Positions 2,220 to 24,890 of a stretch of 37,960 nt of DNA are shown here, piece after piece (the first letter of the stretch is position 1; every line of letters begins with the position of its first letter). The translations under genes were made by a program, and so were the position numbers. Origin of the DNA: a virus (lineage: Duplodnaviria > Heunggongvirae > Uroviricota > Caudoviricetes); the IMG/VR virus record IMGVR_UViG_2588253749_000006; one strand, written 5' to 3'. A model generated the notes under the pieces. It saw only the letters and a list, made by a program, of their open reading frames with translations. It had not been told where the DNA came from and made no database searches.

Positions 2220-2228
2220 GTCGCGCCC

Positions 2229-2692: not shown

Positions 2693-2789
2693 AATTTAAT
2701 TCTCCTCTGTTTCCGGCGTGCAGAAGCCCACGGCGCTGACGCCGGAATAAAAAAGAAAATGTTTTTATTAAATAATTAACGTGGTGTGT

Positions 2790-3320
2790 TTACTGCACAT
2801 CCTGCTCAAAAGGAATTATTGAAAAATCCTCAATATCACTTTTTATGGTAATACCGGGAATATTTTTCACGGCCTCTTTTTCATTCAGAATGGCATCTTT
2901 ATTTATTTCCTCTTTTACACGAATAAAGCGCTCAAGCCCCAGACGTCTCAGTAGTTCAATAACATTATCCGCTCCACGGATACTGACTGATGGCGGACGG
3001 TTTCGCCACTGCACCTCGCCGGTGGTGAGGTTAGCGAACTTCACCTTCCCGTTGCCGGTCAGTTCATCACGGTGTGCCTCACACCATGTCTGAATACCGG
3101 ACTGCAGTTCGGCCATGCGTTTTTTTAGGCTCTCGGTGAGCGGGGCATAACGTGCGGTGATATCGCCAATGGCGTCATTCATTTCTGTTTCAGCCCTGAC
3201 CAGTTCACGTTGTGCGTCACCGAGCAGTCTGATTCCCTCAATGACCTCTTCGCGTGTCCCCGGTACCCAGAGTGCCGCTGCGGACTTGATACGTTTTGCC
3301 CCTTTTGTACTTTTTGCCAT
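2790..3320 (-). CDS. gam: Gam host-nuclease inhibitor (Mu Gam family)
   Basis: 176 aa; extended similarity to Mu Gam as I recall it (KRIKSAAA ... ETEMNDAI ... WCEANRDELT ... SVSIRG ... GLERFIR ... EDFSIIPFEQ). Confidence 0.85.
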   Translation of the reverse strand: MAKSTKGAKRIKSAAALWVPGTREEVIEGIRLLGDAQRELVRAETEMNDAIGDITARYAPLTESLKKRMAELQSGIQTWCEAHRDELTGNGKVKFANLTTGEVQWRNRPPSVSIRGADNVIELLRRLGLERFIRVKEEINKDAILNEKEAVKNIPGITIKSDIEDFSIIPFEQDVQ

Positions 3321-3347
3321 ATCTTATGATTTCTCCAGTTGTGCTGA

Positions 3348-3617
3348 TTACCACAAAGATTCCGGCCACACGACGCGACAGCCGTGCAGTTCGAAAACGC
3401 CCTGACGGAAATATCCCCTGTGGTCATGTCCGGTATACAGATAACAGGCCTTTCCCTGCTCAAGCATGCGCATGCAATGCGCACTCCGGGAAACGCGGAT
3501 GACAGGTTTGTTACCCCTGATGGTGATGCTTTGTACATCCGTGTTCGTCGCCTTAAGCGCCATAATGGCTGACTGCACTTTGCTGATTTGCTGGTTGATA
3601 CCTGTGGTGGATTTCAT
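3348..3617 (-). CDS. hypothetical early protein (occupies the position of kil in Mu)
   Basis: 89-aa ORF directly downstream of the MuB-like gene; no recognisable motif. Confidence 0.4.
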   Translation of the reverse strand: MKSTTGINQQISKVQSAIMALKATNTDVQSITIRGNKPVIRVSRSAHCMRMLEQGKACYLYTGHDHRGYFRQGVFELHGCRVVWPESLW

Positions 3618-3619
3618 TA

Positions 3620-4813
3620 TTAAACCCCTTTGACAACGTCAGCGTTGACCTGTGGAACCCCGATTTCAGCGGCCAGATTCATGGCGGCTATCACCAGGTT
3701 ACTGACGGCCAGCGGATACAACAGGCTGACCATATTTTTACGATGACTTCCCGGATTGCTCAGGCGGGCACGTATGGCATCCACTGCACTGGCGTCCATA
3801 ATGTCCGTCAGTTGTTTACCTGCCCGTTGCAGTTTGAACGTCAGAAACTCTTCAAGGTTATTGTCCAGAGGCAGAAGTTCGACCACCTCACAGCGCTGAA
3901 CGACTTCACGGACTTCCATATTGCGTTCAGACAGTTTTGTCGCCAGTTCCGGCTGGCCAATCAGCACGATGGACAGCAGTTTTTTGAAACCGGACTCCAG
4001 CTCAAAAAAGCGTTTGAGGTGTTTCAGTGTCGGAATGGGCAGACTGTGGGCCTCCTCAATCACCAGAACGTGGCTGAACCCCGCCTGGCTGCTGTCTTTC
4101 AGGACGCGATGCAACTGGCGAAAGCGGGCGTCCTGACTGCGTCTGATGCTTTCCAGTGGTGCGATGGTACTGATAATGGCTTCGGCAATAGCTGCTGCCT
4201 TCAGGGTTTTCCCTTTCACATCGTTGTCTTCCATAGCGATGATGTATGGCTCGATAACAATTACCGGCGCATTCTCGCGGTTGATACGTTCAGTCAGGTC
4301 GCGGCGCAGCGTGGATTTACCCGCACCGGACTCACCGATGACGGCCATAAACCCACCATGACGGGCTGTCTGGTACAACGCCTCACGCACGTAGCGAATG
4401 TCCGGGGTGGTGAACACATCATCAGAACCCTGCATGGCTTCGTCGGCGAACGGGTCACGGAAAAGACCAAACGCTTTTTTGGTTGCCGGGAATAACACCT
4501 GTTTTTTGAGTAACATATTCTCTTCCTCACTGAGGCTCGTTTTATCTGTGGTACCCGCTGTACGGGGAGTGGCCGCGCCCTGTACAGCATCAAAACTCTT
4601 CGCTGTATCAATCCCCTGACTTTCCAGCCAGGACGCAAGACGCCGGCGCACTTCTCCGGGGCTGGTGCGGGGCCACGCGTTATGATTCACAATCTGGGCC
4701 AGCGTGGCCTCAGAAACATCGACAGCTCTCGCCACCACCGCCTGTGGAATACGGGCCTCTTTCAGTTGCTGCTTCAGTACCAGCATGTTTCCCTCCTCAG
4801 TTGCCGTTAACAA
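3620..4813 (-). CDS. MuB-like AAA+ transposition ATPase
   Basis: Walker A GESGAGKST; N-terminal HTH-like region; immediately downstream of and overlapping the transposase gene; true start may be the internal MLVLKQQ. Confidence 0.75.
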   Translation of the reverse strand: MLTATEEGNMLVLKQQLKEARIPQAVVARAVDVSEATLAQIVNHNAWPRTSPGEVRRRLASWLESQGIDTAKSFDAVQGAATPRTAGTTDKTSLSEEENMLLKKQVLFPATKKAFGLFRDPFADEAMQGSDDVFTTPDIRYVREALYQTARHGGFMAVIGESGAGKSTLRRDLTERINRENAPVIVIEPYIIAMEDNDVKGKTLKAAAIAEAIISTIAPLESIRRSQDARFRQLHRVLKDSSQAGFSHVLVIEEAHSLPIPTLKHLKRFFELESGFKKLLSIVLIGQPELATKLSERNMEVREVVQRCEVVELLPLDNNLEEFLTFKLQRAGKQLTDIMDASAVDAIRARLSNPGSHRKNMVSLLYPLAVSNLVIAAMNLAAEIGVPQVNADVVKGV

Positions 4814-6566
4814 TGCTGATAACGCTGCTGCGGGCCGGCGTGGTCAGCGTGGCCATTACTTCATCCAGTGCGGCTTCCGGTACGCCGTCCGGGTACTGTG
4901 CCGTTAACTGGCGGTAATGTTCCGGCGTCCAGGTAAGGCCGTCGGCGCTGAACTTATCGCGTAGGGCTTTCGCGGCCTCCACATGAGTCATGGGACGTTG
5001 TTCAGTGCGCGGTCTGCGTACATCAGAGACCTGACCGCGCTTCGGTATACAGGCCGGAAGTGTGGCGTCATCAATATGTTTATACGGGTCAAGCCGCCCG
5101 CCGAACGGCAGCGCCTTCGCCTTGCGTGCGGCAGCTGCATCTGCGGCGTTGTCTGTACCGGTGACCAGCGCTTCGGTTTCTTTTGCCGCCGTCTGTGCCG
5201 GTGTTTCCGGCAGGGCTTTGTAACTTTCGCCAAATACCGCCGCGCCTTCAGCAAAGCCAAACTCGTTCTTTCTGACCTCTTCGACCAGGAAGAACGTCTC
5301 GTGGCCGTCCTCACCGGTCAGAACCACCTGTGCCACATCGCTGCGCCATGGGTTACGGGTAATCATCAGTTTTTCACCAACCAGTACGCCCGGTACCGTT
5401 GATACGTCAAATTCAGTGCCCCGGAACGAGACACGAAGTTTTGGCGTGACTTTGCGGAGTTCTGGTGTCGCCACAGCCAGTTCACGGCATACCTCAACGG
5501 AAGGCGCTTTTTTCAGCTGCTCAGCAGTAATCTTCAGCCAGATATCCGTGCGGGTTTTACCGTGGCGGCTGTGAACAGCTGTTGCGTTAAAGTGGCTACG
5601 CCATTTCGCGGCCAGCGCGTTGAGTTCTTCCAGACTGTGAACCGGCCGGAATTTCAGACCCGGCTCAAGCTTGCGTTCGATAATGTCACGCGCCTTTTCC
5701 ACCTGTCCGGTGGCGCGGGCGTTATGCGGCTTGTGCGCTATCAGGTCGATGCCCAGTGAGCGGCACATGTTTTTCGTCATACCCGCGGTGTTTGCCGAGC
5801 CGGGGTCGAGATAGAGTATTTTCGGCACGCCGTGCAGCACGTCTGCGCCGCCACGCTCCTGCATGGCGTTGATAAGCACAGAACACAGGTTCTCACCGGA
5901 TTCCGCACCCGTCACATACTCAACGTAAATCCAGCCGCTGGCATGGTCGGTAATCTCGTAACTCCACACGCGGTCACTGGCGATACGGGCAAGGTTAGCG
6001 GGTTTGTTCTTGTAGAACTTCGCGCTGTCCATCACCTGCAGCCCTTTGTGTCCATTGCTCAGGTAGTAAAGCGTGCAGAGCGAGGCATCAATCTGCCAGA
6101 CGTGATTGGGATGCAGACTGGCCACTTCGGTATGCGGCGCAGGGGCATCCAGTTGTTCCGGGTGCAGGCCATAGTTACGCAAGGCACGACTGATGGCATC
6201 TTCGGACAACGGGAAAAACTCACCGGTGGTTTCATCTGTTCTGCCTGCGGAGATAAAGCCGTTAGCCCGCAGGGTTTCCACTGCATCTGCGATGGAATAG
6301 AGACGCTTACCGTTCTTGCGGGTGGCCTCACGCAGTGTGGCAGATATCAGCGCGGCTTCGTCGCGGGTCAGGGCGCTGCGCCCGGCATCGGCGCGTTTTT
6401 TGCGTTTATCAGTCACAGATACCTCCTTCAGCTTGCGCAGCAGAGTGGCGCGGGACATGCCAAGTTCAGCACAGGCAGCGTCGTATATTGCACCGCGTTT
6501 ACCATGCCCCGCGTCACGTGCCGCGCGGGCGACATAAACCAGTCGTTCAGTCAGGGCAGCATTCAT
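4797..6566 (-). CDS. Mu A-type DDE transposase
   Basis: 589 aa; N-terminal HTH; HVWQIDAS and YLDPGS candidate DDE blocks; followed by the MuB-like gene. Confidence 0.8.
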   Translation of the reverse strand: MNAALTERLVYVARAARDAGHGKRGAIYDAACAELGMSRATLLRKLKEVSVTDKRKKRADAGRSALTRDEAALISATLREATRKNGKRLYSIADAVETLRANGFISAGRTDETTGEFFPLSEDAISRALRNYGLHPEQLDAPAPHTEVASLHPNHVWQIDASLCTLYYLSNGHKGLQVMDSAKFYKNKPANLARIASDRVWSYEITDHASGWIYVEYVTGAESGENLCSVLINAMQERGGADVLHGVPKILYLDPGSANTAGMTKNMCRSLGIDLIAHKPHNARATGQVEKARDIIERKLEPGLKFRPVHSLEELNALAAKWRSHFNATAVHSRHGKTRTDIWLKITAEQLKKAPSVEVCRELAVATPELRKVTPKLRVSFRGTEFDVSTVPGVLVGEKLMITRNPWRSDVAQVVLTGEDGHETFFLVEEVRKNEFGFAEGAAVFGESYKALPETPAQTAAKETEALVTGTDNAADAAAARKAKALPFGGRLDPYKHIDDATLPACIPKRGQVSDVRRPRTEQRPMTHVEAAKALRDKFSADGLTWTPEHYRQLTAQYPDGVPEAALDEVMATLTTPARSSVISIVNGN

Positions 6567-6569
6567 TGG

Positions 6570-7481
6570 TTATGCCTCCAGCCCGTTAATCTGTGGCGTC
6601 GGCTCAGTCAGCCATGAAGGCGCGACATCGCCTGTTGGCTCGTCCGGCAGGTCAAATGTGGAGCGCAGGCTACGCGCTGTGCTTTCCAGTTGACAGACCA
6701 GGCCTGCCATGAAGTCTCTGGGGGTATCAATCATGTTTTCAGCACAATATGCGCACAGTGTCTCAAAAGCGCTGGACAGTCGAACGGCGATGGCAGATTC
6801 CGCCTCAACCGCTAACGCGGTCACTTCCGCCCGCAGTTTCTTCACCTCTTCATCAGGCTCAGGTGGCTGAATACGGGATTTCTTCTCCAGTCTGGTGGAG
6901 AGTGAGTCTATTTTTTCATTTTTATCGGCGAGAACACGCTGTTGTGCTGCGTTGGTTTCGCGCGCTTCACGCAGGGCCTGACGCAATTCACGTACTGACA
7001 TGCGATCAACATCGTCAAGCGTCATGCCGGCAACTGTGCCGCCGTCGGCCAGTTCGGCAAGCTCTTCGTCGTCTTCTGTCATTAATTCGAAAAGTTTGGC
7101 TTTTCCCAAATGTGCCAACGTTGGCACATTTGGTTTCAGCGCCGGGGATAAGTATTTTGTCGATGCTTGCATCATTCTCACAGATGTCCGGTATGCCAGC
7201 CCCAACTCACTTTCAAGAATCTTTATAAACTCCCCGTGTGGTTCATTTTCCTTAAGGATTATCAGCCGCTTACCTGCCTCCAGCATGGCCTCAGCGCTCT
7301 GTGCCATATAAAAGCGTGCCTCATGGACAACACGATCGCGCTCATAGGGCAGACCATCGCCGAACTGTTGCATGATTTCCATGCGATGCTGTGTCATGGC
7401 GTTTAGACTGACATTGAGATCATCCGACAGCGGTACCTCGACGTTCAGTTCAGTGCTAACCGGTGATTTGGTGCGTCCCAT
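6570..7481 (-). CDS. hypothetical early protein (coiled-coil region)
   Basis: 303-aa ORF between the wHTH gene and the transposase; no counterpart in the Mu ner-A-B arrangement. Confidence 0.45.
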   Translation of the reverse strand: MGRTKSPVSTELNVEVPLSDDLNVSLNAMTQHRMEIMQQFGDGLPYERDRVVHEARFYMAQSAEAMLEAGKRLIILKENEPHGEFIKILESELGLAYRTSVRMMQASTKYLSPALKPNVPTLAHLGKAKLFELMTEDDEELAELADGGTVAGMTLDDVDRMSVRELRQALREARETNAAQQRVLADKNEKIDSLSTRLEKKSRIQPPEPDEEVKKLRAEVTALAVEAESAIAVRLSSAFETLCAYCAENMIDTPRDFMAGLVCQLESTARSLRSTFDLPDEPTGDVAPSWLTEPTPQINGLEA

Positions 7482-7491
7482 TGATTACTCC

Positions 7492-7800
7492 TTACAAACG
7501 ACTACCTGAAATAACACGTTGGTTGATTTCGTTAATGCGATCCTGTGCACGTGCCATCTCGTTACTGTGGGCCATGGCGATCTGCAGCAACTGGATGCCT
7601 GGTGCGAAACGCCCGTTTTCCAGTTTCAGGGCTAGTCCCTCTTCGATAAGGGTATTGAGTGCTCGATTGATGTTCGCCGGGGACTCATCTAGGGCTGATG
7701 CCAGTTCACCGTTAGAAACACCGTTCAGAGAGTGACCGCGTAGAGCTTTGAGTACACGTAGGATGCGGGTCCCGGAACTGGAGATATTTACTTTACTCAT
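7492..7800 (-). CDS. winged-HTH DNA-binding protein (IclR-like N-terminal HTH only)
   Basis: Internal Met MSKVNISS of track ORF 7492..7863; GTRILRVLKAL ... GELASALDESPANINRALNTLIEEGLA. Confidence 0.45.
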   Translation of the reverse strand: MSKVNISSSGTRILRVLKALRGHSLNGVSNGELASALDESPANINRALNTLIEEGLALKLENGRFAPGIQLLQIAMAHSNEMARAQDRINEINQRVISGSRL

Positions 7801-7852
7801 GTCACATTTCCATTTTTGCAATATGTGATAACCTGTTGCATATATGGAAAAT

Positions 7853-8041
7853 TTATGCCGCATTTGACGTGGGTTTTAATCCCAGCTTTACGGCAATTTC
7901 ATGGGCTTTGCCGTAACGAGCTTTGGTCTGTCCATTGAGAACACGATAGACCTCATTGCGGCTGTAGCCGTGTTCTTCGGCCCAGCGGGTAAACGTGATA
8001 CCACGCTGACGGAAGAGAGTTTTAACTTGTTCGGAAGTCAT
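7853..8041 (-). CDS. Ner-like small DNA-binding regulator
   Basis: 62 aa; GITFTRWAEEHGYSRNEVYRVL ... HEIAVKLGLKP resembles the Ner/Nlp fold; first gene of the leftward operon, divergent from the repressor. Confidence 0.5.
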   Translation of the reverse strand: MTSEQVKTLFRQRGITFTRWAEEHGYSRNEVYRVLNGQTKARYGKAHEIAVKLGLKPTSNAA

Positions 8042-9556: not shown

Positions 9557-10048
9557 ATGGGGCTAATTAAACGATATAGAACAGATTATCCGAACCAAGT
9601 ACATCAACTTTCTGTTGCTGTTTCAAAGCATTATTATGCGGGAGTTGATGGATTGCTTAAGTACCAGAAAAAACCATTTGATATAAAACTTAGCAATGCA
9701 AGTAAAACTGGAAAAGATCATTTACTAGTCTATTCGTTACGCGATCACTACAGTGGTTTGTTTTATATAGAATTGGCATTTCTTTCTACACCACAACCTA
9801 TAACAGCTTTTTTGGGAAGGGCATGGAGGCCAAAGGAAGATAACGTGTTACAGGGTCTTCCTGATATGCTGATGATCCCCAAAACTGTAGAAGATGAGTT
9901 CCCTAACGTATGTAATGCCGTTTATAACCAAGGAGTTGATCTTTTAAAAGTAACCAGCGGTTTTCAGAGTGGAGGGCTTATCGCCATACGAGCGGTAGAG
10001 GAAGATCTTAAATTCTACACAAATACTCCTATAGCACGAGTTTCGTGA
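9557..10048 (+). CDS. unknown protein, second gene of the repressor-linked cassette
   Basis: 163-aa ORF 20 bp after the previous gene; AT-rich; no recognisable motif. Confidence 0.5.
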   Translation: MGLIKRYRTDYPNQVHQLSVAVSKHYYAGVDGLLKYQKKPFDIKLSNASKTGKDHLLVYSLRDHYSGLFYIELAFLSTPQPITAFLGRAWRPKEDNVLQGLPDMLMIPKTVEDEFPNVCNAVYNQGVDLLKVTSGFQSGGLIAIRAVEEDLKFYTNTPIARVS

Positions 10049-10339
10049 GGTTGCGGTTAAAACATGCAGATACAATGCTAATGATATCGCCCGAACCAAT
10101 AAAGAAACAAAGCAAGAGATGTGGTTACGAAACGTCGGTCAGATAGATATACCTTCTCCAGATTTTTGAAACCTGAAATCACGGTGTCGACGGTTCATTC
10201 TGACGCATCATTTATTCTCGTCAGTTGCCTCATATTCGTGCGTGCTAGGAAACATCGGCCAGAATATGTCTGGCATGGCGGCGTTTACAACCAATCCATG
10301 GAGCGATGGGGAATGTCTGCATTTTCATAATCTGTAACC

Positions 10340-10470
10340 CTTTTATAATTATAAAAAATATGGCAGGCTAGTCTGGTCTCGCGAGACTGACTGAACCTCG
10401 GTCGGCTCACAGTGCATTCCTGTGGGGCGATGACCAGCCCGGAGTTCGGGTACCGGGCTGGTCGTTCTTT
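10340..10470 (+). ncRNA. candidate small structured RNA (promoter-like TATAAT, two hairpins, T-rich tail)
   Basis: Palindromic TTTTATAATTATAAAA, then GTCTCGCGAGAC palindrome, then an 11-bp perfect stem GACCAGCCCGG/CCGGGCTGGTC followed by GTCGTTCTTT, inside a 530-bp gap. Confidence 0.2.
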
Positions 10471-10578
10471 CACTGTCAGAGTTCAGAGTGAAGTTTTGAG
10501 ATACATGATTTCTATTAACGCGATTTACTGGATGCATTACCTACGTGCAGTGTTTGTTCGATAAGGATTGTTTTCTGA

Positions 10579-11154
10579 ATGGGAACGTATTACACACTTG
10601 ATTCCGCTAGTCGTCTGCCTTCGCCTTGTCATGTAATTACCGGAAAATACGAGCCTGAAATGCCAGAACTGGCCGCTTTTCTTCATCAGATGTATCCCAA
10701 TGGCCTTTCGAGTCACGGGTATAACTATCTCTATAACCCCGGCCCTAAAATGGAAGATGACAGTGGAATCAGCAGAAGTCTGCTGGTCGGTCTGGTGTTT
10801 GAGTTAGTTCGCCGTAGCCATTTTCCTGATAAACCTTCCCGCTATCAGTCACTGTTTGCCTGTCAGCATCTGAGTGAAGTCAGGAAGTTCAGGGAATTAC
10901 TGGCTGATGAGAGAGGCGAAGACGAAATAAGAACGGCACCGATATATGAAGTCATCACAAATGAGCAGGTGCATCGCGGAGATATGAGGTTATTGAACAG
11001 TGATTGCCCGGTGCTGGAACTGTATCACCGTGCTTGGCTTTACTGGTCGGGTGAAGCAGCCCCAGTTAAGACTGGTGAGGACGAACCGTTCTGGGAACTG
11101 CTGATTCCGCTTCCAGTATTCGTTGGTCGAAGGATAACTGAATCGCAGGATTAG
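10579..11154 (+). CDS. unknown protein (accessory region)
   Basis: 191-aa ORF with an upstream AAGGA. Confidence 0.5.
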   Translation: MGTYYTLDSASRLPSPCHVITGKYEPEMPELAAFLHQMYPNGLSSHGYNYLYNPGPKMEDDSGISRSLLVGLVFELVRRSHFPDKPSRYQSLFACQHLSEVRKFRELLADERGEDEIRTAPIYEVITNEQVHRGDMRLLNSDCPVLELYHRAWLYWSGEAAPVKTGEDEPFWELLIPLPVFVGRRITESQD

Positions 11155-11389
11155 GTGCGGTTTTATATCGTGATGTCGCCGCCACATCGCCAATTAGCAT
11201 GACGTTGTTTTCTCCGCTGGCGAAATGACTTCTTCTCTCTTCAAGTGCAACCAGAACGTTTTTCAGCTCTATAATCGCTTCGGTTGGACAACATGCATCC
11301 AAGCTTAGCGTGTAAGTTTTATTCTGCTCTCCGATTCTGCTCCCAAAGAGGAACCCTTTTTTAATACCAGACTGTTTCGGTTCAGTCAT
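11066..11389 (-). CDS. unknown protein convergent with and overlapping the 10579..11154 gene
   Basis: Internal Met MTEPKQ with GGAGG RBS; 3' end overlaps the convergent gene by about 89 bp. Confidence 0.4.
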   Translation of the reverse strand: MTEPKQSGIKKGFLFGSRIGEQNKTYTLSLDACCPTEAIIELKNVLVALEERRSHFASGENNVMLIGDVAATSRYKTAPNPAIQLSFDQRILEAESAVPRTVRPHQS

Positions 11390-11454
11390 TGTGCTTGCCT
11401 CCCCTATGTTTTGTGTGCGACCATTCTGGTCGCTTCCCTCTGCGAACACTTATA

Positions 11455-11480
11455 ACGCGCTTTAAAATCCGTATCCCGCC
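11455..11480 (+). promoter_or_regulatory. candidate late-promoter activator site upstream of the lysis cassette
   Basis: GCTTTAAAATCCGT about 45-60 bp upstream of the first lysis gene; the same motif recurs near 24826 and 32932. Confidence 0.4.
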
Positions 11481-11519
11481 ACATTTGTGATGCTGTCTCC
11501 ACCAAACAAGGAGACACAC

Positions 11520-11870
11520 ATGAAAAGCCTGAAAAAATTCATTCCCCCTGTTAAAAAACCTCGCCTCAGCGGCTGGCTGCTGACCTCAGTGCTGTTGCTG
11601 GGCACCATCGCTCTGGTCTCGCCACAGCAGTTGCCTGTTGTGATCTACAAGCTGGCACTCATCACGCTGGCAGCAGTGCTGGGTTACTGGCTTGACCGTT
11701 CGCTCTTCCCCAAAGCCCGTCCCGGTCAGTACCTGAAACATGAAGACAGGCTGATGGCTGAAGGGCGTTTCCCTGTGCAGACCGGCCTTCACCTTGTATT
11801 TTCTGCTGCGTTAATCCGCCGTGCACTGATTGTTGCAGCGGTCTGTCTGGCTGTGGCAACAGGACTGTGA
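11520..11870 (+). CDS. holin-like membrane protein
   Basis: ATG with AAGGAG RBS inside track ORF 11487..11870; about 116 aa with two to three hydrophobic segments; first gene before the endolysin. Confidence 0.45.
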   Translation: MKSLKKFIPPVKKPRLSGWLLTSVLLLGTIALVSPQQLPVVIYKLALITLAAVLGYWLDRSLFPKARPGQYLKHEDRLMAEGRFPVQTGLHLVFSAALIRRALIVAAVCLAVATGL

Positions 11871-11872
11871 CC

Positions 11873-12601
11873 ATGAACTGGCCTCAAATCACCCTCATTA
11901 TTCTGTTCGCCTTTGGTCTGGGCGTAACCGCCATCAGACACGGCGAACCACGTAACGATAAATACAGCTTCTGGTGGCAGCTTGCTGGCAACCTGGTGAT
12001 TGTCTGGCTGCTCTGGTGTGGTGGCTTCTTCAGTCAGGCCCGCGCAGCGCAGCCTCCGCAGGCTGCGCTGCAGTATCGCGATGATGTGATCCGTAATGCC
12101 CGGCTTGAATGGGGACTGTCTGCGCCGGTGGCAGATTTCGCCGCGCAACTGCATCAGGAAAGCGGCTGGCGACCTGATGCGGTCTCGCCGGCTGGTGCTC
12201 AGGGACTGGCGCAGTTCATGCCTGCCACTGCCGACTGGATAAGTCAGCTGATGCCGGGACTTAACAGCCGTGAGCCGTTTAATCCGGCATGGGCCATCCG
12301 GGCGCTGGTCAGCTATGACCGCTGGCTGTGGCAGCGCGTCAGCGCCGCCAACGACTGCGAGCGTATGGCCATGACACTGTCAGGCTATAACGGTGGTCTG
12401 GGCTGGGTACAACGGGACAGGCGGCTTGCATCACAGAAAGGTCTGGACAGCACCCGCTGGTTCGGACATGTCGCCACGGTGAATGCCGGACGCAATGCGG
12501 CCAGCTGGCGGGAGAACCGCCATTATCCGCAGCGCATCCTGCGCGAACTGGCACCGCGATATCTCACATGGGGAGGCAGCAGTTGTGTGGCATCTGGTTA
12601 A
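11873..12601 (+). CDS. endolysin, lytic transglycosylase (SLT) domain with hydrophobic N-terminus
   Basis: SLT signature LHQESGWRPDAVSPAGAQGLAQFMPAT; two N-terminal hydrophobic stretches; ATG at 11873 inside track ORF 11867..12601. Confidence 0.7.
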   Translation: MNWPQITLIILFAFGLGVTAIRHGEPRNDKYSFWWQLAGNLVIVWLLWCGGFFSQARAAQPPQAALQYRDDVIRNARLEWGLSAPVADFAAQLHQESGWRPDAVSPAGAQGLAQFMPATADWISQLMPGLNSREPFNPAWAIRALVSYDRWLWQRVSAANDCERMAMTLSGYNGGLGWVQRDRRLASQKGLDSTRWFGHVATVNAGRNAASWRENRHYPQRILRELAPRYLTWGGSSCVASG

Positions 12602-13235
12602 AAAGCTGCCGTGGCGCGGCATTCTGCTGGCCATTCTTATCAATGCCTTTCTGATCGGCCTGTATGCCATGGGATACAGAAGTGGTCATGACTCTGCAAA
12701 GCGTGACGGTAATACCGCGCTCAGTCAGTTGCAGTCAGCATTTGACGCGTACAAAACGGCGCAGGCAACGCTTGAGAATGCTGCGCTGCGGGCTTGGGCC
12801 AGACGGTATCAGGAGCAGGTGGCCGCCGGGCAGCGGGCTGAAGCCGGTTATCTTGAGCAGATTGCTCAACTGGAGAGCCGGAACAAACAACTACAGGGGC
12901 AAATTAACGATGTCACACAGCGCTGGATTGATGAAAAAGGTAAGAGTCATCCCATTGAGTGCGTGTTTACTCGCGGTTTCGTGCGCCAGTACAACGCCGC
13001 ACTCGGATATGACAACGCATCCGTCGACACCGGTCATTCAGACTCAGTTGCCGCCACTGGCACCCGCTCTGGCACAGCGACCGGGCAACCTGAAACCACT
13101 GACACCCGGTTACGCGATTCGGGTGTCTCCCAGCGTGACGTTCTCGCCAACATCATCGACAACGCATGGCAATGTCGTCGCTGGCGGAACCAGATAAACG
13201 CGCTGCTGGATGAACGGGAAGGATTACAGAAATGA
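12585..13235 (+). CDS. i-spanin (Rz-like)
   Basis: GTG start with GGGAGG RBS in track ORF 12483..13235; N-terminal TM WRGILLAILINAFLIGLYAM then coiled-coil-like periplasmic region; contains the nested o-spanin. Confidence 0.6.
   Translation: MWHLVKKLPWRGILLAILINAFLIGLYAMGYRSGHDSAKRDGNTALSQLQSAFDAYKTAQATLENAALRAWARRYQEQVAAGQRAEAGYLEQIAQLESRNKQLQGQINDVTQRWIDEKGKSHPIECVFTRGFVRQYNAALGYDNASVDTGHSDSVAATGTRSGTATGQPETTDTRLRDSGVSQRDVLANIIDNAWQCRRWRNQINALLDEREGLQK
12931..13197 (+). CDS. o-spanin (Rz1-like lipoprotein) nested in the +1 frame of the i-spanin gene
   Basis: Internal Met of track ORF 12664..13197: MKKVRVIPLSACLLAVSC signal/lipobox-like, then a proline-rich mature region. Confidence 0.55.
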   Translation: MKKVRVIPLSACLLAVSCASTTPHSDMTTHPSTPVIQTQLPPLAPALAQRPGNLKPLTPGYAIRVSPSVTFSPTSSTTHGNVVAGGTR

Positions 13236-13558
13236 CACTGCAGGTTGAATTCTGGACGGTGGTGAGTTTTCTGCTCACCTTCATGGGGTTTGTGGGAGGG
13301 CTCGCCAAATGGTTGTTCAGTAAAACAGAAGAACGCCAGGCGGCACGATTCGCCTCCCTTGAACAGGCCCTGCAACAATCCGCCTCCAACTGGGGCGAGC
13401 TGGAAAAAGAATTTATGCGATTTAAAGCGGATTTACCGCTGAATTATGTCCGTCGAGAGGATTATATCCGTGGCCAGACAGTCATTGAGGCCAAACTGGA
13501 CGCGCTTTATAACAAACTGGAAGTGGTACAGCAGTACCGCAATACCGGAGGTCAATAA
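13232..13558 (+). CDS. membrane-anchored protein after the spanins (lysis accessory candidate)
   Basis: 108 aa; N-terminal TM FWTVVSFLLTFMGFVGGLAKWLF. Confidence 0.4.
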   Translation: MTLQVEFWTVVSFLLTFMGFVGGLAKWLFSKTEERQAARFASLEQALQQSASNWGELEKEFMRFKADLPLNYVRREDYIRGQTVIEAKLDALYNKLEVVQQYRNTGGQ

Positions 13559-13869
13559 TGGTCGATATTACCCGAGTACGCCGCGAATCCCTGCGCTGGA
13601 GTCTGCTGGTTGCCCTGAACAAGACCCGCCCTTACACCGCCAGCGAGACGCTGCTGCTGGATGTGTCCCGTGCCATCTACCCGGACACCACACCGCTGGA
13701 GCTGCGCCGCGAACTGGATTATCTGGCTGACCGTAAAATGGTTGAGCTGGAGAAAAAACCTTCTGGTGACTGGTTTGCTGACCTGACCCGCCTCGGCGTA
13801 GACCTGGTGGAATACACCGTGGAATGTGGTCCGGGTATTGCCCGCCCGGAAAAGTACTGGAGTGAATAA
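13558..13869 (+). CDS. hypothetical protein
   Basis: 103-aa ORF with coupled start/stop. Confidence 0.4.
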   Translation: MVDITRVRRESLRWSLLVALNKTRPYTASETLLLDVSRAIYPDTTPLELRRELDYLADRKMVELEKKPSGDWFADLTRLGVDLVEYTVECGPGIARPEKYWSE

Positions 13870-14414
13870 TGGCCAGACGCAGCACAATAGAAAAGCTGCC
13901 GGAAGACGTGCGCCGCTGGCTTGAACGGGCGCTGACTGAATCCGGCTTCAGCGGGTATAACGAGCTGGAGTCCCTGCTGCGTGAGCGGGGATACGTCATC
14001 AGCAAATCCGCTATCCATCGCTATGGACAGAAGATTGAGCGCCGCTATGGTGCTATCCGTGCGGCGACAGAAGCGGCCCGCATGCTGACCGAAGGCGCAG
14101 CAGACGATCAGGATGCGCGTTCGGAGGCTGTGATAGCCCTTATTCAGACCGAGCTGTTCGAGAGTATTGTCCAGTTGCAGGAGGCGGAAGAAGGCGAAGT
14201 CGATCCTAAAGAACGCGTGGCCCTGCTGTCGAAGGTGGCGAAGAATGTGGCTACGCTGTCACGCGCGTCCGTCAACCTCAAAAAGTTCCAGTCTGAAGTG
14301 CGAGCCAGAGCGCAGCAGGCAGCCAGCAACGCAGAGAAAATTGCCCGTAAGGGCGGACTGTCAAGCGACGCAGTACAGGCGCTTCGTCGCGAGATTCTGG
14401 GGATTGCCACATGA
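13869..14414 (+). CDS. terminase small-subunit-like protein (Mu gp27/DUF3486-like)
   Basis: N-terminal STIEKLPEDVRRWLERALTE ... SKSAIHRYGQK resembles DUF3486; directly precedes the large terminase. Confidence 0.55.
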   Translation: MARRSTIEKLPEDVRRWLERALTESGFSGYNELESLLRERGYVISKSAIHRYGQKIERRYGAIRAATEAARMLTEGAADDQDARSEAVIALIQTELFESIVQLQEAEEGEVDPKERVALLSKVAKNVATLSRASVNLKKFQSEVRARAQQAASNAEKIARKGGLSSDAVQALRREILGIAT

Positions 14415-16006
14415 CAAAATCATCCGGAGTGATTTTAAACGCCGCTGGCGGCGGCCCCGAAGGGATGAGTCCCATGGACGGGAGGAATAACCTTGCTCCC
14501 GTTTTGCCTGATACCTCGGCGCTGGATGCCCCTCCCGTTCTGTTGCCTTACCAGCAGCGCTGGGTGGCAGACACCTCTCCGCTTAAGGTGATAGAAAAGA
14601 GCCGTCGTACCGGTATTACATGGGCTGAGGCATCCGATAACGTACTGACCGCCGCCTCTTCTGCGCCAGCAGGCGGGATGAATGTGTATTACATCGCTTA
14701 TAACCAGGACATGACCGTCGAATACATTCAGGCGTGTGCGATGTGGGCACGGGCATTCAACTATGCGGCCAGTGAAATTGAAGAAGGATTCTGGGAAGAG
14801 GACGACGACGACAAACACATCAGGACTTACACCATCAAATTTCCTGACTCCGGCTTTCGTATTGTTGCGCTCTCCAGCCGCCCGTCTAACCTGCGTGGCC
14901 GTCAGGGTATTATTGTTATCGACGAAGCGGCGTTCCATGAGCAACTGGACGAACTGCTGAAAGCGGCGCTGGCGATGCTTATCTGGGGGGGGAAGGTACA
15001 CGTTATCTCCACCCATAACGGTGACGACAATCCGTTCAATACGCTTATCGGGGATATCCGTGCCGGACGTCAGGGAGGCAGCATACATCGCATCACTTTC
15101 CGGGAAGCCGTATCTGAGGGGCTGTTCCGGCGCGTCTGTCTGCGCACCGGGAAGGAATGGTCGGAGGCCTCCGAGCAGGCCTGGATGGCATCGGTGTACA
15201 AATTCTACGGTGCCGGCGCATCCGAAGAGCTTGACTGTATTCCGGCCAACGGTGGCGGTGCCTGGCTGTCCCGTGCCCTGATAGAGTCCCGCATGTCCGC
15301 TGATACGCCGGTATTGCGTCTGACCTGCAAGGAAGGTTATGAACTGCTGTCTGATGAGGTTCGCTTCCGCGAGACGCAGGACTGGCTTGATGAGTATCTG
15401 AAACCATTGCTGGAGGCACTCCCCACTGATGCCCGCTCTTTCCTGGGGCGCGACTTTGGCCGTAGCGGTGATTTGTCGGTGGACTATCCCCTGCTGCAGG
15501 AGAAGAACCTGGTACGACGCGTGCCATTCGTACTGGAGCTGCGTAACGTGCCGTTCAGACAGCAGGAGCAAATCACCTGGTATCTGATGGATGGCCTGCC
15601 CGGTCTGCTGGGTGCAGCGTTTGATGCCCGTGGTAATGGTGCCTATCTGGCTGAATACGCCATGCAGCGCTACGGCTCCAGCCGGATTCAGCAGGTGATG
15701 CCAACCGAAGGCTGGTACAGGGAGCATATGCCTCCGGTCAAAGCTGCACTGGAAGACGGTAACCTGGTGGACTTACCAAAGGATGAAGACACACTGGATG
15801 ACCTGCGGGCCGTTCAGGTGGTGAACGGTGTCCCCCGCGTACCGGAGCAACGCTCAAAAGCAAAGGCTGACGGTGGTAAACGCCACGGGGATTCAGCCAT
15901 CGCACTGGCGCTGGCGTATTTCGCCAGCCGTGAAATTAACAAAGGGCCGGTGAAGGCAAGCTCACGCCGTCGTCGTCAGGCGGCCCGTATGCTGGAGGGA
16001 TTCTGA
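14411..16006 (+). CDS. terminase large subunit
   Basis: 531 aa; position before the portal; ATPase/nuclease-like blocks (IVIDEAAFH, ISTHNGDDNPF). Confidence 0.8.
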   Translation: MTKSSGVILNAAGGGPEGMSPMDGRNNLAPVLPDTSALDAPPVLLPYQQRWVADTSPLKVIEKSRRTGITWAEASDNVLTAASSAPAGGMNVYYIAYNQDMTVEYIQACAMWARAFNYAASEIEEGFWEEDDDDKHIRTYTIKFPDSGFRIVALSSRPSNLRGRQGIIVIDEAAFHEQLDELLKAALAMLIWGGKVHVISTHNGDDNPFNTLIGDIRAGRQGGSIHRITFREAVSEGLFRRVCLRTGKEWSEASEQAWMASVYKFYGAGASEELDCIPANGGGAWLSRALIESRMSADTPVLRLTCKEGYELLSDEVRFRETQDWLDEYLKPLLEALPTDARSFLGRDFGRSGDLSVDYPLLQEKNLVRRVPFVLELRNVPFRQQEQITWYLMDGLPGLLGAAFDARGNGAYLAEYAMQRYGSSRIQQVMPTEGWYREHMPPVKAALEDGNLVDLPKDEDTLDDLRAVQVVNGVPRVPEQRSKAKADGGKRHGDSAIALALAYFASREINKGPVKASSRRRRQAARMLEGF

Positions 16007-17499
16007 TGGCGAGGGGTATCTGGGTTTCACCCGATGAATTTGTTGCTTTTTCTGAGCCTCAGAAATCACTGACCGCGCAGATTGCCTCCCGCAGCCGCGC
16101 GATCGACTTTTACGGACTGGGCATGTATCTGCCCAATCCTGATCCCATTCTCAAGGCTCAGGGACGGGATATCCGTATCTACCGCGAACTGCGCACCGAC
16201 CCGCTGGTCGGAGGCTGTATCCGCAGACGTAAAGCAGCGCTCAAATCGCTGGAGCGTGGACTGGAGCGCGGTCACGCTTCTGCCCGGGTCTTCCGTTTCA
16301 TCCGCGACATGCTCGACGATCTGGATCTGTCCCGCATCATCGGTGAGATGAGCGATGCCGTGCTCTACGGGTATCAGCCCTGTGAAATCATGTGGGGCCG
16401 TTCGGTCAGGGCGTGGGCGGTGACGGATATTGTCGGCAAACCGCCTGAGTGGTTTCAGTTTGATACGGACAACTGCCTGCGCTTCCGGGCGCGTGATGCG
16501 GGTGTGGAGGGTGAGCTGCTGTCACCGTCAAAATTCGTGGTGCCGGCACAGGATGCCTCGTATGACAATCCTTACGGTTTCCCGGACCTGTCCATGTGCT
16601 TCTGGCCGGTCGCCTTCAAGAAAGGCGGGATGAAATTCTGGCTCCGCTTTGCCGAAAAGTTTGGCTCCCCGTGGGTGATCGGTAAGCACCCGAGGGGTGC
16701 AAATGATGCAGAGATTGAAAAACTGCTGGACTCCATGGAGCAGATGGTGGAGGACGCTGTGGCCGCCATCCCCGATGACAGCAGCATTGAACTCAAAGCC
16801 GCGGATGGCAAGGCGGACAGCAGCGAGGTATTCCGCGAGCTGATCACGCTGTCACGCAGTGAGATCTCCATTGCATTACTCGGTCAGAATCAGACCACGG
16901 AAGCGAACAGTAACAAGGCCTCTGCACAGGCCGGGCTGGAGGTGACGGCTGATATCCGCGATGCGGATGCGGACATCATTCAGGCGGCAGTGAATCAGGT
17001 CATCAGAACGGTGGTCACCCTGAACTTCGGCGATGTGCCGTGTCCGGTCTGGGCCATGTGGGAACAGGAGGCCATTGATGACACCCGTGCCACCCGCGAC
17101 GAAAAACTCACCCGCGCGGGACTACGCCTGACCCCGCAGTACTTCATGCGGGAGTACCAGCTGCAGGAGGGGGATATTGACCTCTCTGATGCACCGGTTG
17201 CGGACGGGGCAGTGCCTGCGGAGTTTGCCGAGGCGATAAGCGCCGATCATGATGCACAACAGCAGCTTGACGACGCGCTGGACATTCTGATGAACGGAGG
17301 TGTGTTAAATGGCACGCTGGAACCCGTCCTGGCACCTCTGTTCAGGCGGGTCGAAAACGGGGTTAACCCGTCTGAGCTGCTGGGCGAACTGGCGGAGCTC
17401 TACCCTCAGATGAACACGGACGATCTGCAGGAGCGGCTGGCCCGCATTCTCTTTGTGGCAAATATCTGGGGGCGTCTGCATGAGCGTGACAACGGCTGA
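16006..17499 (+). CDS. portal protein (Mu gp29/DUF935 family)
   Basis: 497 aa between terminase and the F-like gene; N-terminal region typical of DUF935 as I recall it. Confidence 0.8.
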   Translation: MARGIWVSPDEFVAFSEPQKSLTAQIASRSRAIDFYGLGMYLPNPDPILKAQGRDIRIYRELRTDPLVGGCIRRRKAALKSLERGLERGHASARVFRFIRDMLDDLDLSRIIGEMSDAVLYGYQPCEIMWGRSVRAWAVTDIVGKPPEWFQFDTDNCLRFRARDAGVEGELLSPSKFVVPAQDASYDNPYGFPDLSMCFWPVAFKKGGMKFWLRFAEKFGSPWVIGKHPRGANDAEIEKLLDSMEQMVEDAVAAIPDDSSIELKAADGKADSSEVFRELITLSRSEISIALLGQNQTTEANSNKASAQAGLEVTADIRDADADIIQAAVNQVIRTVVTLNFGDVPCPVWAMWEQEAIDDTRATRDEKLTRAGLRLTPQYFMREYQLQEGDIDLSDAPVADGAVPAEFAEAISADHDAQQQLDDALDILMNGGVLNGTLEPVLAPLFRRVENGVNPSELLGELAELYPQMNTDDLQERLARILFVANIWGRLHERDNG

Positions 17500-18301
17500 A
17501 CTGGCGTACTGCATGACGCTTCCCCCGAAGCGGGCAGTCAGCTACCTGAAGTCCAAAGGGTATCAGATTACCTGGGACTGGGAGGAGATGTGGCAGGAAG
17601 CCCATGCCCGCGCCTTTACCGTCGCTAAAGTGACCCGCCTGGATATCCTGGAAGATATTCGCGGGGCACTGCAGCAGGCTGTCGATGAAGGAAAAACCGA
17701 TCGCTGGTTCCGGCAGGCGCTGGAGCCGGTGCTGAAGCGTAAGGGATGGTGGGGACCACGTGACACGACTGACCCGGTAACGGGTGAGCCGGTCACCATT
17801 CAGCAGGGCAGTCCGTGGCGGCTCGATACCATCTTTCGCACCAATATGTCCGTACTCTACAGCGCCGGTCGTTGGGCGGAGCAGATGGAAAACGTCGACG
17901 ACAGGCCGTACTGGATGTATACCGGCATCAACGACAGCCATACCCGCAGGAGCCATCTGGCGCTGCATGGTCTGGTGCTGCGCTGGGATGACCCGTTCTG
18001 GCAGGCATTTTACCCGCCGAACGGCTGGCGCTGCCGCTGTAGTGTGATTGCCCTGAGTGCGGCGGATGTACGTGCCCGTGGCCTGAAGGTTATCAGCTCC
18101 GGCTCTGTCATGGGCCAGGAACTGAAACTGGTCTCAGAGAAAACCGGCGAAATGCGGAACGTGGCCACCTTTAATACCGGCACCACGAAGGTGACCACCG
18201 ACGTCGGCTGGTCTTATGCACCGGGGGCAGCATACCGTCCCGACCTGGCCCGCTATCAGGGTACGTTTCAGCCACTGGCACAACAGGAACTGAGAGGATA
18301 A
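17480..18301 (+). CDS. Mu F-like minor head protein
   Basis: ATG inside track ORF 17453..18301; follows the portal gene. Confidence 0.7.
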   Translation: MSVTTAELAYCMTLPPKRAVSYLKSKGYQITWDWEEMWQEAHARAFTVAKVTRLDILEDIRGALQQAVDEGKTDRWFRQALEPVLKRKGWWGPRDTTDPVTGEPVTIQQGSPWRLDTIFRTNMSVLYSAGRWAEQMENVDDRPYWMYTGINDSHTRRSHLALHGLVLRWDDPFWQAFYPPNGWRCRCSVIALSAADVRARGLKVISSGSVMGQELKLVSEKTGEMRNVATFNTGTTKVTTDVGWSYAPGAAYRPDLARYQGTFQPLAQQELRG

Positions 18302-18303
18302 CA

Positions 18304-18762
18304 ATGGCTTCCGATAACCTGGTCAGTATCACCATTAACGATAAATCCCTGCGCCGGAGCCTCCGTGCGCTGGATCTTGCTGCCACAGACCTGGAGCCCG
18401 CGATGCGCAAAATCGCCGGAACCCTGCTGGCGGAAACACAGTTTAACTTTCTTGATGAGGGGCGTCCGGGGTGGATGCCCTCGCTGGCAGCGGAAGAACG
18501 TGACGGGCAGACACTGCAGGATACCGGGCGTCTGATGGGGTCAGTATCAACCGACCATGACGACCGGCAGGCTGTTGTGGGGACCAACGTTGTTTACGGT
18601 GCCATTCACCAGTTCGGGGGTAAAACGGGGCGTAATGAGTCTGTTGAACTTCCGGCCCGCCCGTTCCTGCCGGTGACGGGGGATGGAGAACTACAGCCTG
18701 AAGTGGTAATCCCCATCCTCGATACCATTGTCCGCCATCTTGAATCAGCGGCCCGTCGCTGA
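18304..18762 (+). CDS. virion morphogenesis protein (Mu G-like)
   Basis: 152 aa; GAIHQFGG motif typical of this family. Confidence 0.55.
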   Translation: MASDNLVSITINDKSLRRSLRALDLAATDLEPAMRKIAGTLLAETQFNFLDEGRPGWMPSLAAEERDGQTLQDTGRLMGSVSTDHDDRQAVVGTNVVYGAIHQFGGKTGRNESVELPARPFLPVTGDGELQPEVVIPILDTIVRHLESAARR

Positions 18763-18976
18763 GTTTTCTCTCTTCAGGCGGGTGATTTATCATTGCCAGC
18801 GAATGAGGGGCTGTATTACCTTTATAAAGGCTTTACAGCCTCTGTTTTATAACCGCTTCCGGTTCACCGCATTGCTTTCCCTGTCCTTCTCCCCTGATGT
18901 TTTCTAAAGCAGATTAAAATCGCCGGGCCTGCATTTCTCACAAACTGTCTCCGACAACATAACGCGGGACAGCAAA

Positions 18977-20092
18977 ATGTCAGCCATTCACATTTTTAAA
19001 GCCGGTACTCATACCGATATGCACGGCAAAAAACTGCCGTTCACGCCAGACGATCTTGCCGCCTGCGTGAAAGCCTATGACCCGTCCGTCCATGAAGCAC
19101 CACTCGTGATTGGTCATCCCAGAACGGAAGACCCGGCGTGGGGCTGGGTGAAAGCCCTGTCGCTCAGCGGCGTCGATCTGATGGCAGAGCCTGCCCAGTT
19201 GGACCCGCAGTTTGCTGAGATGGTCACCGACGGACGATTCAAAAAAGTGTCCGCCTCTTTCTACCTCCCGGATTCACCGTCCAATCCGAAGCCCGGCGTG
19301 CTCTACCTGCGCCATGTGGGCTTTCTCGGGGCACAGCCACCTTCCGTCAAGGGGCTGAAACAGGTGTCCTTCAGTGAGCAGGAAGAAGGTGTGGTGGAGT
19401 TCGCCGACTGGCAGGCCATCACGAATGCCTCCCTGTGGGGAAAGCTGCGCGATTTTCTGATCGCCCGCTTCAGTCTGGACGAAGCAGAAAAAGTCCTGCC
19501 GGAATGGCAGCTCAACAATCTGCGCGAAGAGGCGTACCGCGACACACCGTCGCAGGATGCAGCAGGTGCACAATTCAGTGAGACAGGCCAGGTGCCGTCT
19601 TCCGCAAGTAACGAGGAATCATCGATGACAAAAGAAGAGATTGAAGCCCTTCAGGAGGAGAACCGCCGCCTGAAGCAGCAGGCTGCTGATCGCGATGCGC
19701 GTGATGCACAGGCCAGACAGGAGCAACTGCATAAGGACAATGTGGCCTTTGCAGAAAAACTGGTCGCAGAGGGGCGTCTGGCTCCCCGCGCCTCCTCCGT
19801 GGTGGTTGCCCTGCTGGATGCCGTCGCCGGTGGCGACAAGCCGGTGGAGTTTGCTGAGGGGGAAAGCCGCACGCCGCTGGCCACCGCCTTCCGTTCATTG
19901 CTCTCCGACGGGGAGCCGGTAATGAATTTCGCCGAACAGGCCACAAAGGAGCGTGTCGGCGACACGGTGAAGGTGGATGTGGCGGAGTTTGCGGAAGCCG
20001 ATCCTGAGCGTCTGGCCCTGCATCAGAAAGCAGTGGCCCTGTCCAAAAAAGAAGGCATCAGCTATGAGGCTGCTGTCGCACGCTGCCTGTAA
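18977..20092 (+). CDS. head protease/scaffold (Mu I-like)
   Basis: 371 aa immediately before the major capsid gene; acidic coiled-coil C-terminal half. Confidence 0.65.
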   Translation: MSAIHIFKAGTHTDMHGKKLPFTPDDLAACVKAYDPSVHEAPLVIGHPRTEDPAWGWVKALSLSGVDLMAEPAQLDPQFAEMVTDGRFKKVSASFYLPDSPSNPKPGVLYLRHVGFLGAQPPSVKGLKQVSFSEQEEGVVEFADWQAITNASLWGKLRDFLIARFSLDEAEKVLPEWQLNNLREEAYRDTPSQDAAGAQFSETGQVPSSASNEESSMTKEEIEALQEENRRLKQQAADRDARDAQARQEQLHKDNVAFAEKLVAEGRLAPRASSVVVALLDAVAGGDKPVEFAEGESRTPLATAFRSLLSDGEPVMNFAEQATKERVGDTVKVDVAEFAEADPERLALHQKAVALSKKEGISYEAAVARCL

Positions 20093-20106
20093 TTTAAGGA
20101 GAAATC

Positions 20107-21060: not shown

Positions 21061-21069
21061 GGAGGCGTT

Positions 21070-21408: not shown

Positions 21409-21409
21409 C

Positions 21410-24509: not shown

Positions 24510-24511
24510 CG

Positions 24512-24793: not shown

Positions 24794-24800
24794 CATCACA

Positions 24801-24822: not shown

Positions 24823-24823
24823 A

Positions 24824-24846: not shown

Positions 24847-24890
24847 CCACCGCCAGACATACTGCTCTGAATTTACAAAGGAGTATGATC

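Follow-up and report, generated by a model that had tools for sequence, protein, structure and literature searches.

A Mor-type dyad precedes four predicted late promoters of a BcepMu-like prophage of Escherichia coli

Results

A dyad with fixed promoter geometry precedes four late operons

We examined a 37,960-nucleotide (nt) stretch of viral DNA (Caudoviricetes; IMG/VR record IMGVR_UViG_2588253749_000006; hereafter the window), which is a BcepMu-like transposable prophage of Escherichia coli, and found that a short motif repeated in its late region belongs to a larger dyad upstream of four operons. This element very probably marks four late promoters, designated P-lys, P-I, P-TAC and P-W, that are switched on by a single activator of the Mor family. 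The case is built on the elements themselves, on their geometry, nonrandom occurrence and conservation, and on the presence of a single mor gene. By analogy with the Pm promoter of phage Mu, we infer that Mor binds the elements, that the four promoters depend on it and that their transcripts begin at the positions predicted below.

The first-pass annotation of this DNA had described CTTTAAwATCCGT as a motif shared by three late operons and had proposed its copies as candidate binding sites for a Mor/C-family activator. The three copies were found where it had placed them (GCTTTAAAATCCGT at 11459-11472, CCTTTAATATCCGT at 24828-24841 and CCTTTAATATCGT at 32936-32948), and the genes behind them are those that it had named, i.e., a holin (Holin_2-3) with an SLT endolysin, a tail assembly chaperone (TAC; Phage_TAC_7) and a baseplate wedge protein (GPW_gp25). 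Scanning both strands with CTTTAAWATC gave three exact matches (11460, 24829 and 32937), all on the plus strand and all intergenic, versus 0.10 expected, and none of 100 dinucleotide shuffles reached three. When one mismatch was allowed, six matches were found versus 2.87 expected, and the three extra ones lie in coding sequence; this is chance level, so that the motif is not equally frequent within genes but occurs there only at background.

Aligning the sites on the core TTAAWATC revealed both their common architecture and a fourth site (18903-18921; TCTAAAGCAGATTAAA-ATC), located before the head protease/scaffold gene at 18977, which had been overlooked because its core is ATTAAAATC and not CTTTAAWATC. 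The four sites are built alike: 5-bp inverted repeats, nnTAA and TTAAw, surround 6 bp and are followed by ATC, 19 variable nt and a -10-like hexamer. Each box matches a perfect inverted repeat at four of five positions, the spacer contains five G or C residues of six at P-lys and three of six at P-I, P-TAC and P-W, and a conserved A(T/G)C flanks the right half-site. The second base of the hexamer is A and the sixth is T at all four sites; the hexamers are weak, with the general form nAnnCT. A loose pattern of the box, 22 nt and nAnnnT matched exactly these four sites on the plus strand of the 37,960 bp, and its single minus-strand match is the W box read in reverse. The original motif is thus real, although it covers only part of a 16-bp dyad, from the end of the spacer through the right half-site into the 3' flank, and the three operons first listed are four.

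Chance recurrence of an A/T-rich word might be suspected, as A+T content is higher between genes than within them and shuffles of the whole window ignore this. We regard it as vanishingly improbable: the excess over expectation is accompanied by a fourth site with the same extended architecture, and the comparative data contradict chance, the element being kept at orthologous positions where the flanking intergenic DNA cannot be aligned.

All four promoters read on the plus strand. The P-lys box (11451-11469; TATAA-CGCGCT-TTAAA plus ATC) holds the first copy of the motif and is identical in Klebsiella phage KP12 and in three further loci (L088-L090). Its hexamer, GATGCT (11489-11494), is preceded by TGT and lies 22 nt after the right half-site; a start is predicted at about 11501-11502, ahead of a GGAG at 11510 and the holin ATG at 11520. 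At P-I, the box (18903-18921; TCTAA-AGCAGA-TTAAA plus ATC) is followed by CAAACT (18941-18946) and a predicted start at about 18953-18954, and the gene at 18977 matches phrog_976, a head maturation protease equivalent to Mu I. The P-TAC box (24820-24838; CTTAA-TCTCCT-TTAAT plus ATC) holds the second copy of the motif and precedes CATACT (24858-24863), a predicted start at about 24870-24871, a GGAG at 24880 and the chaperone ATG at 24891. The P-W box (32928-32946; TTTAA-ATCCCT-TTAAT plus ATC) holds the third copy, and its hexamer, AATACT (32966-32971), ends 6 nt before the W start codon at 32978.

None of the four sites has a -35-like hexamer, and a sigma-70 consensus scan flagged no promoter at any of them; the hexamers found at -35 spacing (AATCCG, AATCGC, TATCCG and TATCGT) are poor matches to TTGACA. 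These results bear on whether the sites might be ordinary sigma-70 promoters that need no phage activator, with the A/T-rich motif serving as an UP element or an unusual -35. Such promoters would explain the -10-like hexamer at a fixed distance at each site and the TGT before the P-lys hexamer, which resembles an extended -10, and A/T-rich upstream DNA can bind the alpha C-terminal domain of RNA polymerase (PMC4390567). We consider this highly unlikely. Besides the poor -35 and weak -10 hexamers, the element is a dyad with a G/C-containing spacer in the register of the Pm Mor element and not an A-tract, and a prophage that expressed its lysis and structural genes constitutively would presumably harm the host.

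The boxes are of the Mor type

In Mu Pm, the Mor element is a dyad centred at -43.5 with a G/C-rich 6-bp spacer, and it takes the place of a -35 element (PMC4390567, PMC4287176). When the numbering was set by the published mutant names (-57G, -56T and -55 to -53 AAA), this element was AGTAA-AGCCGG-TTAAT, extending from -51 to -36, with the hexamer TATCCT 22 nt further on. The hexamer geometry equals that of Pm, and a centre at about -43.5 is assumed for the window dyads too. The window boxes agree with the Pm box at 9-11 of 16 positions, with P-I at 11 of 16, and by eye the P-I box of BcepMu (CGTAAAGCCGATTAAA) agrees with it at 13 of 16. The same box search in Mu found Pm and none of the four C-dependent late promoters, and by eye the Mu late promoter regions contain no TAA-N6-TTAA box; the window boxes are therefore of the Mor type and not of the C type. 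Thus the earlier assignment to the Mor/C family, which agrees with the presence of a mor gene, the Pm-like sequence and geometry and the conserved operon starts, needs to be narrowed to Mor.

We also built a weight matrix from 15 sites of other genomes only (Pasteurella phage AFS-2018a, Pseudomonas phage Komp_PAO1_1, BcepMu, Ralstonia phage YO107_2 and Mu Pm). Its three best matches in the window were P-I (26.9 bits), P-W (22.0 bits) and P-lys (19.2 bits), while the maximum score per shuffle had a mean of 11.7 and a standard deviation of 2.8 (100 dinucleotide shuffles). Matches at 13421(+) and 9911(+), which are intragenic and lack a -10-like hexamer, were treated as chance.

The element is conserved at orthologous operon starts

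All four sites are present in KP12, where the W site lies within a 55-bp V-W gap whose flanks are unlike those of the window. In BcepMu, boxes precede the holin gene, the I equivalent gp32 and the W equivalent gp49; the Ralstonia phage has three boxes and Komp_PAO1_1 has four, and in the Pasteurella phage one box precedes each of the lys, I, TAC and W homologues. For a wider sample, one genome per species was taken and scanned by alignment of the tube protein, which yielded 80 prophage or tailocin loci from Enterobacterales, Betaproteobacteria and Lysobacter. The architecture was found within 200 nt upstream of 38 of the 47 I homologues located, 42 of 78 TAC homologues (mostly in Enterobacterales) and 51 of 66 W homologues. 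Among distinct sites, pairwise identity was 0.76-0.80 for the box and its flank and 0.39-0.43 for the 19-nt spacer, the length of which is constant. An A follows the right half-site in all 101 distinct sites (within rounding), which is not forced by the pattern, and the consensus of the hexamers is (C/G)ATACT.

Further elements were seen around P-I. The G-I intergenic region carries CCTTTATAAAGGCTTTACA at 18819-18837, the same gap in BcepMu carries GTAAAGTTTTATAAAGGCTTTAC (L002, about 18735-18760), and in the Pasteurella phage a further box is found about 97 bp before the one at P-I. The extra G-I element may belong to a terminator hairpin or serve as an auxiliary upstream site. In addition, the predicted P-I leader (18947-18976) can fold into a 5' stem-loop, GTCTCCG...CGGGAC, whose equivalent in Photorhabdus and Xenorhabdus (L020-L034) has the stem GCCTCTAT...ATAGAGGC, with changes that look compensatory; this stem-loop may stabilise the mRNA.

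The baseplate W gene appears to begin at its own promoter start

The W ATG follows the hexamer by 6-8 nt in 46 of 47 distinct sites from many genera, and by exactly 6 nt in 33 of them, e.g., AATACT-gccccc-ATG in the window, CAACAT-ggccgc-ATG in BcepMu and CACGAT-agccgc-ATG in the Ralstonia phage. Betaproteobacterial I genes are similar, with the ATG 6-7 nt after the hexamer in 12 of 32 distinct I sites. Inspection by eye found no Shine-Dalgarno sequence at the usual distance from the W ATG. With a transcription start 7 nt past the -10, the predicted +1 would fall on, or next to, the first base of the W ATG (32978), and the conserved distance between hexamer and ATG argues that transcription does start there. 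This geometry implies that the baseplate W message would be leaderless. P-W stands directly before W despite a 2.3-kb cargo between V and W that is disrupted by an insertion sequence (IS), which fits an independent promoter that would let the baseplate be expressed regardless of the cargo.

Between V and W (30695-32906 region), the cargo gene is present as two pieces, 30695-31414 and 32706-32906, which both match phrog_29450; KP12 lacks the cargo. The pieces are split by an IS3-family element (orfA, 31458-31868; orfB, 31826-32731), labelled IS2 in E. coli records, and intact E. coli copies of the gene are annotated as a PD-(D/E)XK nuclease-domain protein. The split gene may be a disrupted defence-type moron.

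A single Mor-family activator is encoded at the end of the early operon

The mor gene (4-390, minus strand) is the last gene of the early operon and overlaps gemA (365-853). Its 129-amino-acid product matches PF08765 at full length (residues 9-116, E = 1.3e-43) and is 54% identical to BcepMu gp01. Using the window's Mor, Mu Mor, Mu C and four other homologues as tblastn queries, we found one Mor/C gene each in the window, KP12, BcepMu, the Ralstonia phage, Komp_PAO1_1 and the Pasteurella phage, and two in Mu. The window begins at the mor stop codon; a second copy past this edge is unlikely, because mor is the outermost gene on that side in BcepMu.

Phages with TTAA-type boxes have in common the recognition helix VS(L/M)Q(W/F)(V/I)Y, which is VSLQWVY in the window. 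The Mor of Pseudomonas phage JBD25, a B3-like phage, is 37% identical by alignment (41% by tblastn) and has the helix LTPSSIY. In JBD25, which lacks the TTAA-type box, the lysis, I and tape-measure operons are preceded by another motif that they have in common, C(C)TTCCAAAA(G/T)AC, found upstream of 13443, 21792 and 27322. Thus, both box and helix have changed in JBD25, the pattern expected if Mor reads the box.

This result also bears on whether another factor, such as a host nucleoid protein or a different phage regulator, might recognise the element, or whether it acts in the RNA, e.g., as an A/U-rich RNase E site at operon junctions. The sites do lie at junctions of blocks that are possibly co-transcribed, and their sequence is A/T-rich. 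However, the fixed 22 nt to nAnnnT and the 6 nt between hexamer and W ATG are traits of promoters and not of processing sites, the sequence and register match a footprinted Mor site, the motif differs in JBD25 together with the Mor recognition helix, and in the early control region, where operators of a repressor are expected, the matrix scan detected no box of this kind. We therefore consider these explanations unlikely and favour Mor as the protein that would act at the four boxes.

The C terminus of the window's Mor (...MQGKLFADEP) contains a Q-x-x-L-F sequence (QGKLF, residues 113-117), which is also present in the homologues of BcepMu (QRDLF) and Komp_PAO1_1 (QGDLF), with a near-match, QFDMF, in the Pasteurella phage. 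Mu C is reported to have a C-terminal clamp-binding motif, QPDLF, and to tie late transcription to the beta-clamp (PMC12867686), and by analogy late transcription in the present phage may use the beta-clamp as well.

Predicted transcription units and mechanism

A terminator-like hairpin at 24800-24815 (plus strand; AGGGGCTCCGGCCCCT and a T-rich tail) ends the P-I unit directly upstream of the P-TAC box. It is the top-ranked terminator-like site in 11000-30900, and the order of hairpin and then box is also found in KP12 and BcepMu. Another hairpin (18745-18762, plus strand), at the end of the G-like gene and before the P-I box, is a candidate end of the P-lys unit, and a second, weaker one lies at 18828-18841. 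The first predicted unit would thus run from P-lys (about 11502) through the lysis, terminase, portal, F and G genes to the hairpins at 18745-18762 and 18828-18841, and the second from P-I (about 18954) through the protease, capsid, head completion, sheath and tube genes to the hairpin at 24800-24815. The third would begin at P-TAC (about 24871) with the chaperone and tape-measure genes and continue through V. The fourth, from P-W (about 32978), would carry W, J and the tail fibre genes, and its message would begin at its own start codon.

In the mechanism that we propose, induction would lead to transcription of the minus-strand early operon, the last gene of which would supply the sole Mor/C-family protein. 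Bound to the dyad as a dimer or tetramer, Mor would stand in for the -35 contact and recruit sigma-70 RNA polymerase. By analogy with Pm, it would contact the alpha C-terminal domain and region 4 of sigma-70 at these promoters with weak -10 hexamers. Mor was described as a dimer in classical work and as a tetramer in a 2025 cryo-EM preprint. Since there is no C gene and the Mor-type box stands directly on the late operons, the cascade would have two stages and not three.

The P-lys box is palindromic, and on the minus strand CAGAAT (11428-11423) lies 22 nt beyond it. The box might therefore serve two divergent promoters, one for the holin gene and one for an unannotated open reading frame (ORF) of 107 amino acids (11069-11389, minus strand), which is divergent from the holin gene and has GGGGAGG 8 nt before its ATG. 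The intergenic region between the two is almost identical in five sequences (the window, KP12 and L088-L090). Homologues of this ORF in Enterobacterales, down to 50-56% identity, keep the frame open, and no Pfam or PHROG match was found. Mismatches to KP12 are spread evenly over the codon positions (13/11/12), and there is therefore no signal of purifying selection on it. On a Symbiopectobacterium contig (L087, 507-1247), a homologue of the divergent ORF lies 10 nt 3' of mor on the same strand, in the order gemA-mor-ORF; this rearranged element ties the small ORF to the activator gene.

Gene layout and other features of the window

All genes of 1-8041 are on the minus strand, including those for the transposase (4797-6566), a B-like ATPase, GemA (PF06252, 6e-41) and Mor. 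The plus strand is used from about 8.1 kb, beginning with a repressor-like gene that is followed by genes for the holin, SLT endolysin, spanins, terminase and portal and, further on, by head, sheath, tube, tape-measure and P2-like baseplate genes. The nearest phage records are KP12 (about 91% DNA identity) and Escherichia phages PhiKM and Phi06_2974 B, and E. coli chromosomes carry DNA near-identical to the window.

No convincing gene was recognised in the roughly 530 bp at 10048-10579, which contain a sigma-70-like promoter, TTTTCA-16-TATAAT (10322-10349). Inspection by eye also shows a long hairpin there, at about 10426-10462; the terminator scan lists a site at 10443-10459, and no Rfam match was found in this stretch. 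Upstream of the DUF2441 gene (10579), a fifth box-like palindrome (10514-10529, minus strand; AGTAA-ATCGCG-TTAAT) has the half-sites of Mu Pm and a matrix score of 14.8. It is kept in KP12 and in L088 amid differing flanks, and no clean -10 lies 22 nt away on either strand. A scan of the whole window against Rfam at gathering thresholds gave zero matches; no known RNA element therefore explains the promoter sites.

Boxes in tailocin clusters of Pectobacterium

In Pectobacterium clusters that lack head genes (carotovoricin-type), a box precedes each of four genes, namely those for the holin, a gp37-like tail-completion protein, TAC and W (5366, 7825, 10938 and 16920 in L048; 5349, 7809, 10943 and 16988 in L043). 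The second of these boxes, TCTAAAACAGATTAAA, resembles the P-I type, which would fit a deletion of the head genes that spared their promoter. No Mor homologue was found within the 20-kb locus examined in either L048 or L043. Pectobacterium has RdgB, a Mor-family regulator of pectin lyase that reportedly also has a role in carotovoricin production, as the title of a 1994 report by Liu et al. indicates. Record annotators also call the Mor homologues of KP12 and phiE255 RdgB. Carotovoricin is described as a Mu-type tailocin (PMC13566846), and as the same boxes occur in such clusters, these are candidate direct targets of RdgB, which by analogy with Mor may bind them.

Discussion

Our results indicate that the repeated motif very probably belongs to four Mor-dependent late promoters, and several observations weigh against this. 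The P-TAC box scored 11.9 bits, about the mean of the shuffle maximum, and its left half is weak; the support for P-TAC is its right half-site, ATC, hexamer, position and conservation, and not the box score alone. In betaproteobacterial relatives, no recognisable TAC box was found. Across the 80 loci, the pattern showed a 51-fold enrichment in the 260 nt before I, TAC and W homologues relative to the rest of about 3 Mb of both-strand sequence, a figure that is partly circular because the pattern was designed with the sites already known; the relatives-only matrix is a cleaner test, free of that circularity. Covariation of helix and box is imperfect, since Mu Mor has the helix VTFNTVY and yet a similar box. 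P-lys might have some activator-independent activity, given the TG just 5' of its hexamer. A search of the literature found no transcript 5' ends, binding assays or reporter data for this phage group. Finally, a start-site table for Burkholderia cenocepacia J2315, which carries the BcepMu prophage (PMC4603805; uninduced biofilm, ambiguous strand labels), lists no start at the predicted late promoters; with the prophage repressed, this absence is to be expected and does not test the proposal.

The type of switch is known from Mu and would not surprise a specialist, while the sites themselves have apparently not been mapped before in BcepMu-like phages: no description of them was found in the searchable literature, which did not cover the original BcepMu genome paper (PubMed 15184022). 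If the proposal is correct, it provides a testable map of the late regulon, with four promoters, their starts and the operon boundaries, for a prophage family of Enterobacterales and Betaproteobacteria. The conserved leaderless start predicted for the baseplate operon would be a small, clean case for the study of leaderless translation in phage late genes. More broadly, we tentatively propose, as a generalization that seems to us quite possible, that one Mor-family protein acting with Pm-type boxes runs the whole late programme of a large and widespread family of BcepMu-like prophages, and of the tailocins derived from them, including those of the carotovoricin type, in a two-stage cascade. 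It would follow that the baseplate message is conserved as leaderless, its -10 being set 6 nt from the ATG, that the P-lys box may fire both ways, towards the holin gene and towards the conserved divergent ORF, and that QGKLF suggests coupling to the replication clamp. The boxes could serve to predict or engineer the induction of tailocins and prophages. The comparison also indicates that the Mor type of box, and not the C type, is in wide use for late genes outside Mu, which bears on how duplication of a single activator gave rise to the three-stage cascade of Mu.

Comparison with known systems

The closest known counterpart is Mu Pm. The 22-nt register between box and hexamer in Pm is that of all four window sites and of all sites in the relatives, and the inverted repeat of Pm also matches at four of five positions, although its spacer, with five G or C residues of six, is richer than those at P-I, P-TAC and P-W. 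No -35 is recognised in either system, the window sites have a -10-like hexamer where Pm has its -10, and both encode a Mor-family activator at the end of the early operon. In Mu, the terminator-like hairpin of the early operon (by eye) overlaps the Pm box, and in the window a terminator hairpin extends with its tail into the P-TAC box. The two differ in that Pm has CCG at about -35 to -33, where the window boxes have a conserved ATC, and, above all, in what the box controls: in Mu it drives one middle operon, whose product, C, activates the late genes, whereas in the window it stands directly on four late operons.

In role, the window promoters correspond to the C-dependent late promoters of Mu (Plys, PI, PP and Pmom), which have a -10, no -35 and a Mor/C-family protein on a dyad overlapping the -35 position (PMC2582627, PMC4461284). 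Both sets comprise four late promoters for lysis and morphogenesis operons, and two occupy equivalent positions, one ahead of the lysis genes and the other ahead of the I protease gene, where Mu also has CAAACT, the hexamer of P-I. The third and fourth precede P and mom in Mu and the tail chaperone and baseplate W genes in the window. The C-dependent type itself was rejected for the window sites, as the box search that recognises them found none of the four C-dependent promoters in Mu; the window has no C gene.

The late promoters of P2 are likewise four in number and activator-dependent. P2-like phages use an Ogr-type zinc-finger activator, whereas the window encodes a Mor-family protein, and the Ogr/Delta type was rejected because its TGT-N12-ACA dyad, which is centred near -55, is absent between -90 and -30 at all four sites. 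The tail and baseplate genes V, W and J are nevertheless of the P2 type in both the window and BcepMu, and BcepMu also shares the inverted layout of the early region with the window.

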